DNA of 64,000 nt from Escherichia coli (GTDB lineage: Bacteria; Pseudomonadota; Gammaproteobacteria; Enterobacterales; Enterobacteriaceae): assembly GCF_016026235.1 (NCBI RefSeq), contig NZ_CP065613.1; one strand, 5' to 3'. Within the stretch, counting starts at the first letter, position 1, and each line of letters opens with the position of its first letter. Below the pieces are notes generated by a model, which was given only the letters and a program-made list of their open reading frames with translations, made no database searches and had not been told where the DNA came from. Position numbers and translations under genes: made by a program. Positions 58,838 to 58,945 of the stretch are shown in pieces.

Positions 58838-58945
58838 GCATCGCCCCTCACCCCAATGGGGAGAGGGAGAAAACCAGCGCAATATTCAATATCGAGCACA
58901 ATCGGTCCCCTCGCCCCTCTGGGGAGAGGGTTAGGGTGAGGGGGC
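58838..58945. repeat. GC-rich imperfect palindromes (boxC-like) between yjdP and phnP
   Basis: cgcccctcaccccaatggggagagggag and tcccctcgcccctctggggagagggttagggtgaggggg; family assignment is from memory and tentative. Confidence 0.5.

Follow-up and report, generated by a model that had tools for sequence, protein, structure and literature searches.

The repeats described as BoxC, PIT and TMECO are treated as one family by Holder et al. 2015. BoxC was named at the copy beside envM (= fabI) (Bergler 1992, cited as ref. 46 by Holder et al.), and PIT elements go back to Hoyne et al. 2000. The same family has also been listed as the HPG1/HPG2 quadruplex motifs (Kaplan et al. 2016, PMC5100583), and the published counts for the BoxC family are 23, and 22-32. 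As a published rule, each of the five K-12 doublets combines a type-A with a type-B element. With regards to the surrounding genes, copies elsewhere in the genome have no preferred position or distance, and some are located upstream of genes or inside operons.

A comparable organization is known from the REP/BIME sequences with their RAYT (TnpA-REP) genes and from the REPINs. Like BoxC, these are short GC-rich intergenic palindromes present in tens to hundreds of copies, with two subtypes that alternate in inverted orientation and are joined by characteristic linkers. The doublets of REPINs look like the replicative unit and the singlets like decay products, as they do for BoxC, and a single-copy gene flanked by repeats is found in REP-RAYT systems as well. 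However, the sequences are unrelated, the candidate partner of BoxC is a DUF559 PD-(D/E)xK (Vsr-like) nuclease instead of an HUH/Y1 transposase, and mobilisation is not on record for BoxC. MITEs offer a second comparison, as the K-12 doublets with facing G ends resemble the pair of terminal inverted repeats of a DUF559 cassette minus its gene, whereas BoxC has no identified target-site duplication or transposase and its terminal repeats are internally palindromic. The third comparison concerns the EDxHD/Vsr-like homing endonucleases (I-Bth0305I family, within DUF559). A DUF559-containing gene has been placed in the EDxHD homing-endonuclease family, and DUF559 nucleases can be selfish mobile-gene nucleases (PMC9403480); moreover, YcjD detects Vsr in profile comparisons. 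In contrast to the homing endonucleases, YcjD-type genes stand alone, outside introns and inteins, and are bracketed by repeats, and YcjD is a predicted nuclease. To our knowledge, the BoxC/PIT/TMECO repeats have been unexplained since 1992.

The yjdP-phnP spacer

The locus considered here was found in a stretch of 64,000 nucleotides of Escherichia coli DNA, referred to as the window throughout. According to the open reading frames and the annotation, yjdP and phnP converge in this window on a spacer of 146 bp (58821-58966). A preliminary description, made from the letters of the sequence, had placed two GC-rich imperfect palindromes between these convergent genes; gene order and strands were confirmed, and both quoted GC-rich strings were found at that site. 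The features of the locus are as follows:

58491..58820, plus strand: yjdP, an open reading frame; the name is taken from K-12 and many RefSeq genomes
58844..58867, minus strand: type-B BoxC remnant (element 1), as read from the allele comparison below; a simple hairpin CCCTCTCCCC-ATT-GGGGTGAGGGG on the minus strand, with one G block and a loop (12 bp) missing
58868..58880, minus strand: 5' flank of the type-B remnant, GCGCTGGTTTTCT on the minus strand, recognized as a T-rich flank match
58888..58907, plus strand: type-A 5' flank AATATCGAGCACAATCGGTC, which precedes other type-A copies also
58908..58943, plus strand: intact type-A ('A mm') BoxC/PIT/TMECO core (element 2), recognized by the TMECO pattern, the catalogues and its identity with the prototype
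58908-58916, plus strand: C block CCCTCGCCC of element 2, followed by the loop CTCTG
58922-58930, plus strand: G block 1 GGGAGAGGG of element 2, followed by the loop TTA
58934-58942, plus strand: G block 2 GGGTGAGGG of element 2, then G
58944..58960, plus strand: conserved 3' flank GCCAGCGCGCACATTCC, with matches at hrpB-mrcB and in Enterobacter asburiae
58967..59725, minus strand: phnP, an annotated open reading frame and the terminal gene of the phn operon

The 23-nt and 24-nt patterns of the two palindromes occur at this single site in the 64 kb (0 matches expected from 100 shuffles), and the 9-mers CCCTCNCCC and GGGNGAGGG have no further occurrence in the window. An Rfam scan of the spacer gave best matches of only 12-17 bits with E >= 3, far under the gathering thresholds.

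The neighborhood of the spacer has features of its own. [quoted passage not shown] Homology of the window to K-12 starts only at 58285 (K-12 4,313,662, within rpiB). In the region 57865-58422, the first 312 nt of rpiB are absent from the window, the als genes upstream have no window match within the K-12 stretch compared, and an open reading frame of 665 aa (55867-57864, minus strand) is located 626 bp upstream of yjdP in place of the K-12 sequence.

An intact type-A BoxC element

Element 2 matches the TMECO pattern as defined by Holder et al. 2015, CCCTCNCCC-N3-6-GGGNGAGGG-N3-GGGNGAGGG, at 58908-58942, and corresponds letter for letter to TMECO no. 22 of these authors (CCCTCGCCCCTCTGGGGAGAGGGTTAGGGTGAGGGG, type 'A mm'). 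In their Table 1, TMECO no. 22 is located at MG1655 4,314,285-4,314,320 on the plus strand, and a check of the coordinates against the K-12 sequence identified this stretch as the exact counterpart of window 58908-58943. The same site is listed as HPGQ 51 (yjdP>>> 4314309 <<<phnP) by Kaplan et al. 2016 (PMC5100583). Furthermore, the prototype BoxC beside fabI/envM (minus strand 302-336 of the extract L013) is identical to window 58908-58942 at 35/35 positions, and the 5' flanks are similar. The assignment to BoxC, offered in the preliminary description, was thereby borne out. Element 2 has the three-block pattern, the 5' flank and the intergenic site of the family in addition to the core of its prototype. 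It is an already known element that has been catalogued twice and, as such, an ordinary finding. Our analysis goes slightly beyond the literature with element 1 as a decayed partner on the opposite strand and with the link to DUF559 genes.

The outer stem of palindrome 2 comprises 13 bp (GGTCCCCTCGCCC / GGGTGAGGGGGCC, 58904-58916 with 58934-58946, 85% complementary) and encloses a further G block, GGGGAGAGGG. For the DNA hairpin of element 2, energies of -13.7 kcal/mol on the G-rich strand and -9.6 kcal/mol on the C-rich strand were calculated. The canonical G-quadruplex pattern (G3+ N1-7, four times) is present in the form GGGG-AGA-GGG-TTA-GGG-TGA-GGGGG at 58921-58944. The 5' flank (GAGCRC..ATCGGT / CAATAT..GCACAAT.CGGT) also stands before the copies at pstA-pstB, zntA-tusA, wcaK-wzxC, ypfG-tktB, fepB-entC and fabI-ycjD, and flank and core together form a unit of about 56 bp (58888-58943), with a BoxC length of 56 bp given in the literature. 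On the 3' side, the part CAGCGCGCACATTC matches CAGCGCGCACGTTC, from the spacer of the K-12 hrpB-mrcB BoxC pair, at 13/14 positions, and GCCCAGCGCGCA follows the type-A copy downstream of the Enterobacter asburiae DUF559 gene.

Copy numbers were determined with a 51-nt query around palindrome 2 over 5,426 complete E. coli genomes. Related places were found in 5,425 of them, with a median of 19 per genome and a range of 2-34, and the K-12 MG1655 record contained 21. The genome-wide search proposed in the preliminary description thus returned a multi-copy sequence, and the case of no additional copies elsewhere does not apply. The element is dispersed and intergenic, with copies in five further regions between genes. 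The four copies inspected, at pstA-pstB, zntA-tusA, wcaK-wzxC and ypfG-tktB, have the core CCCTCGCCCC(TCT)GGGGAGAGGGTTAGGGTGAGGGG and the 5' flank GAGCRC..ATCGGT in common. In the E. coli genome set, 359 of the approximately 95,700 BoxC-like places were on plasmids; no association of the motif with plasmids was reported by Holder et al. 2015. A literature search for functional work on BoxC/TMECO newer than 2016 found none.

A probably decayed type-B partner on the opposite strand

Palindrome 1 (58844-58867) has the sequence CCCCTCACCCC-AAT-GGGGAGAGGG, with 9 base pairs and one central A.A mismatch. Its DNA hairpin was calculated at -8.3 kcal/mol on the plus strand and -8.7 kcal/mol on the minus strand (z -2.5 and -2.7, respectively). 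With one block missing, element 1 does not match the TMECO pattern, and its two G runs fall short of the canonical G-quadruplex pattern. It is absent from both published tables (Holder et al. 2015; Kaplan et al. 2016), and it went uncatalogued because one block has been lost.

At the same site, strain 19A14 carries CCCCTCACCCCGGCCCTCTCCCCAATGGGGCGAGGG, and the minus strand of this allele, CCCTCGCCCCATTGGGGAGAGGGCCGGGGTGAGGG, is a complete type-B element with a full TMECO match. The complete type-B allele was present at this site in 64/5,426 E. coli genomes. Compared with 19A14, the allele of the window (and of K-12) shows a 12-bp gap with CCCC on both sides and one substitution. The adjoining GCGCTGGTTTTCT resembles the T-rich flank of other type-B copies (hrpB GGTTGGTTTTCT, alx GCACCGTTTTCT, lldD TTTTTTTCT), and a conserved T-rich stretch precedes the C block of HPG2, which is type B (Kaplan 2016, PMC5100583). 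Judged by this allele comparison, palindrome 1 is the remnant of a second BoxC, of type B and on the minus strand. A reading of element 1 as a truncated copy in direct orientation, suggested by its agreement of 88% with the initial 24 nt of element 2, was rejected on account of the minus-strand type-B allele of 19A14. The two palindromes are hence not the like units that the preliminary description had made of them, the first being, on the same comparison, a copy that belongs to the other subtype, runs on the opposite strand and has 12 bp deleted.

The spacer contains, as far as its sequence tells, a decayed inverted BoxC pair, in which the type-A element (plus strand, 58888-58943) is intact and the type-B element (minus strand, 58844-58880) lacks one G block. 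Together, the two elements reproduce the inverted type A/type B rule of the K-12 doublets, although element 1 is one block short. A second difference concerns the orientation. The C-block ends face each other at yjdP-phnP, as at lldD-trmL, whereas the G ends face each other in four of the five K-12 pairs.

Nested deletions and the origin of the pair

An alignment of one example per spacer length gave a series of alleles with spacers of 158, 146, 76, 42, 34 and 27 bp in E. coli. The 158-bp allele is that of strain 19A14, and the 146-bp allele that of the window and K-12. In O157 the spacer is 76 bp long, and the junction lies within a direct repeat of 9 nt, TCGCCCCTC, that the two elements share. 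The shortest spacer, of 27 bp, was found in O25b:H4 and strain A24, and those of 42 and 34 bp in other lineages. In O157, ST131 and other B2-type lineages, the spacer has shrunk to 76-27 bp. The deletion junctions were read by eye from the alignment, and only the 12-bp and the O157 deletions are relied on; at least two of the nested deletions end in short direct repeats inside BoxC blocks. A query of 501 bp that spans the locus was retained to at least 80% in approximately 3,700 genomes; the alleles of the remaining genomes are shorter.

The simpler reading of the 12-bp change would be a deletion in the window allele, while the intact allele of the 19A14 type, rare as it is with 64 genomes, could stem from gene conversion off a paralogue. 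The series of nested deletions fits the findings of Holder et al. 2015, namely excess variability around TMECO sites and palindromic pairs with partial deletions, for which these authors tentatively blame replication slippage or repair at a non-B structure. The locus is a concrete example of an instability that they reported statistically.

With regards to its origin, the pair is probably what is left of a dispersed repeat, selfish or neutral, with blocks that fold easily and render the locus prone to deletion, and the doublet appears to have no dedicated host function here. Its main local effect would be structural. In the single-stranded state during replication or transcription, the C block would pair with a G block, and the third block could add a triplex, or the G blocks could form a quadruplex, as they do in vitro. 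Folded blocks plausibly stall polymerases and would thereby favor slippage between the short direct repeats CCCC and TCGCCCCTC, and slippage between block repeats would lead to nested deletions across E. coli lineages. An intrastrand purine-motif triplex was observed in vitro by CD and NMR for single-stranded DNA of the identical 'type A mm' class; since the triplex was not detected in vivo by DMS footprinting, structure-driven slippage is only plausible as a mechanism.

Association with DUF559 endonuclease genes

A scan for the TMECO pattern was performed with one genome per species. Among the matches listed, at least 150 copies were found in Mitsuaria (Roseateles) chitosanitabida, and further copies in a Methylomirabilota MAG, a Contendobacter MAG and an unclassified MAG, which makes the following an anecdotal sample from four genomes. 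The 'free' block positions of the non-E. coli copies are the same as in E. coli. Only three DUF559 open reading frames (Pfam PF04480, E 1e-33 to 1e-39) are present in the 1.07 Mb of motif-bearing DNA among the matches listed:

L061, 5941-6360: DUF559 open reading frame bracketed by BoxC-like elements
L062, 1173-1592: DUF559 open reading frame bracketed by BoxC-like elements
L064, 11563-11988: DUF559 open reading frame bracketed by BoxC-like elements

In all three, the start is preceded at a distance of 18-39 nt by a BoxC-like element, and a second, inverted one covers the stop codon or comes just behind it; the homology of divergent DUF559 paralogues starts and stops at the BoxC-like elements. 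A RAYT-like transposase flanked by the motif was sought in the 1.07 Mb and none was found; the genes flanked on both sides were the DUF559 genes and a few transporters. DUF559 genes bracketed or ended by BoxC-like elements were also seen in the extracts L139, L141, L143 and L144. In Mitsuaria (L064, about 11990-12113), the BoxC-like element in front of one DUF559 paralogue is itself immediately preceded by head-to-tail repeats of the heptanucleotide CACGGAG.

In K-12, the single-copy DUF559 gene ycjD stands beside the prototype BoxC (extract L138 = K-12 1,351,000-1,352,100). Its stop codon falls within a partial BoxC hairpin, with the protein ending in ...RSPSP*, and downstream of the gene come a duplicated fragment of its 3' end and, after that, the full (prototype) BoxC. 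The tandem duplicate of the ycjD 3' end is approximately 108 bp long (L138 300-420, K-12 about 1,351,300-1,351,420), includes a degenerate BoxC hairpin and has GAATATTCTCCAGCACCGTCTCC twice. In E. coli, ycjD occupies a site that is taken by eefRABCD in other phylogroups, and an indel of 12 nt has been noted at the 3' end of ycjD (PMC12817139). The gene is absent from 2,049/5,426 E. coli genomes, O157:H7 included. Set against ycjD, the number of BoxC places is 2-7 in B2-type strains without the gene and approximately 15 in O157:H7, also without it.

The repeat extends into the encoded proteins. PSPxPSP, usually PSPRPSP, is found near the C-terminus in 66-67/92 non-E. coli clusters of YcjD homologues (the count varies with the pattern), and it is the exact end of the protein in 56 of the 92 clusters. 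Translated, CCCTCACCC-CGG-CCCTCTCCC gives PSPRPSP, and this DNA is the type-B G blocks in reverse complement. When a Mitsuaria sequence lacking the tail served as the query, the motif was found in 51/119 homologues and in all three frames (PSPxPSP, PHPxPLP, TLTxTLS), whereas 1.7% of control open reading frames had such tails. Depending on the frame, the repeat-encoded ends read PSPRPSP, PHPNPLP or TLTPTLS. In 25/119 homologues an N-terminal 'LSRxRERxRVR' was present, which is the expected translation of the upstream element. Because the motif occurs in all three reading frames, these tails point to conservation at the DNA level.

The full layout of BoxC(+), gene and BoxC(-) was found on two metagenome contigs, and the enterobacterial homologues have BoxC on the 3' side only. 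In Enterobacter asburiae, the DUF559 gene is followed by type B(-), AGCAAACCATC, type A(+) and GCCCAGCGCGCA, which is the doublet module of yjdP-phnP. The neighborhoods of the DUF559 genes differ between E. coli, Enterobacter and Klebsiella. In Klebsiella quasipneumoniae (L141 1864-2090), tandem units of approximately 60 bp, CCCTCTCCCTCAGCGAGAGGGAGAAAGAGAGTCC.CACGCAGATTCCATAACCGCACCG.ACGGTT, each with a degenerate BoxC hairpin, lie between the type-B(-) BoxC at the DUF559 stop and the type-A(+) element. DUF559 proteins are Vsr-like PD-(D/E)xK nucleases, and the sole solved relative is 3HRL, an uncharacterised structural-genomics protein. Within the literature searched, no paper was found that ties DUF559 or ycjD to BoxC.

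BoxC-like elements and DUF559 genes are thus consistently associated in distant bacteria (Enterobacteriaceae, Mitsuaria and the metagenome contigs), which suggests a repeat-nuclease partnership of the REP-RAYT kind as a candidate. Against a functional link speak the many E. coli genomes without ycjD, among them O157:H7 with its approximately 15 BoxC places, and the one-sided BoxC of the enterobacterial homologues. More speculatively, the family might spread with, or derive from, small DUF559 cassettes that end in inverted BoxC, and the dispersed singlets and doublets, yjdP-phnP included, would be gene-less derivatives of such cassettes. The corresponding proposal is that BoxC/PIT/TMECO are the terminal inverted repeats of a selfish DUF559 cassette (YcjD included), and that singlets and doublets such as yjdP-phnP are non-autonomous derivatives which the nuclease recognises or once mobilised. 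We regard this as a tentative proposal with a little less than an even chance of being correct. The 'mm' hairpin has a G.T mismatch at its centre, which would, by analogy, resemble the T:G substrate of Vsr. If the proposal is true, BoxC and DUF559 would form a repeat-nuclease partnership in parallel to REP-RAYT, the second of its kind, with a different enzyme fold. A functional association would provide the first testable hypothesis for the origin and spread of BoxC repeats, and a role for a large family of uncharacterised nucleases.

Roles in RNA or as non-B DNA

Besides these origins, the hairpins could act in RNA at the meeting point of the two genes. They might serve as a (bidirectional) terminator, or they might stabilise 3' ends by blocking exonucleases, which is known of some REP sequences. 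The predicted RNA of the 146-nt spacer is stable on both strands (-64.9 and -63.0 kcal/mol; z -2.5 and -3.0 vs shuffles), the element is located 24-101 nt from both stop codons, 6/16 HPG1 members lie between convergent genes, and a terminator role has been proposed (Kaplan et al. 2016, PMC5100583). However, neither hairpin is followed by the direct U/T run of an intrinsic terminator on either strand, the tails being AGAAAACC and GCCAGCGC on the plus strand and GATTGTGC and CGATGCC on the minus strand, and a promoter/terminator scan of both strands of the spacer (58821-58966) found no terminator-like or promoter-like site. PIT elements acted neither as promoters nor as terminators and left RNA polymerase unaffected (Hoyne & Maher 2002, as reported by Holder et al.). 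In addition, the varied positions of the copies elsewhere, upstream of genes or within operons and at no favored distance, and the shortened spacers of O157, ST131 and other B2-type lineages argue against such a role. The idea of a terminator or insulator in the preliminary description is not supported, given the missing T-run, the empty scan, the PIT assays and the many lineages without the element. We consider a role in RNA unlikely. The element may have a weak 3'-end role, given the 6/16 HPG1 members, and it should not be annotated as a terminator.

Even a regulatory use of the DNA structure itself has been considered, with the element as a switch between a triplex, or a G-quadruplex, hairpin and duplex, for the local control of transcription or replication. 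Kaplan et al. proposed a quadruplex/hairpin/duplex switch without in vivo evidence and reported an ion-dependent transition between quadruplex and hairpin (PMC5100583). The four G runs of at least three in element 2 (GGGG, GGG, GGG, GGGGG) fit the quadruplex pattern, and the variable block positions are identical in distant bacteria. Nevertheless, no DMS protection was seen in vivo, the double-stranded form behaves as a duplex, and the copies show no tie to gene class, orientation or distance. Element 1 can form neither triplex nor quadruplex because its third block has been lost, and the locus is dispensable in many lineages. A dedicated switch at this locus is therefore rather improbable, and the relic reading is retained.

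The weakest alternative, chance GC-rich sequence or ordinary REP elements, has the small size of the palindromes in its favor and nothing else, and can be practically dismissed with 0 matches expected by shuffling, identical cores at many loci, no block in common with the REP at pstA-pstB and no Rfam match. In this respect, the early impression that the palindromes are unlike REP elements was correct. The REP in question, GCCGGATCAGGCGTTCACGCCGCATCCGGC, which we take to be one from the REP (PU) consensus, is located approximately 45 bp upstream of BoxC in the pst operon (O157:H7 pstA-pstB spacer, L002 about 1420-1460), where two unrelated repeat families share one intergenic region.
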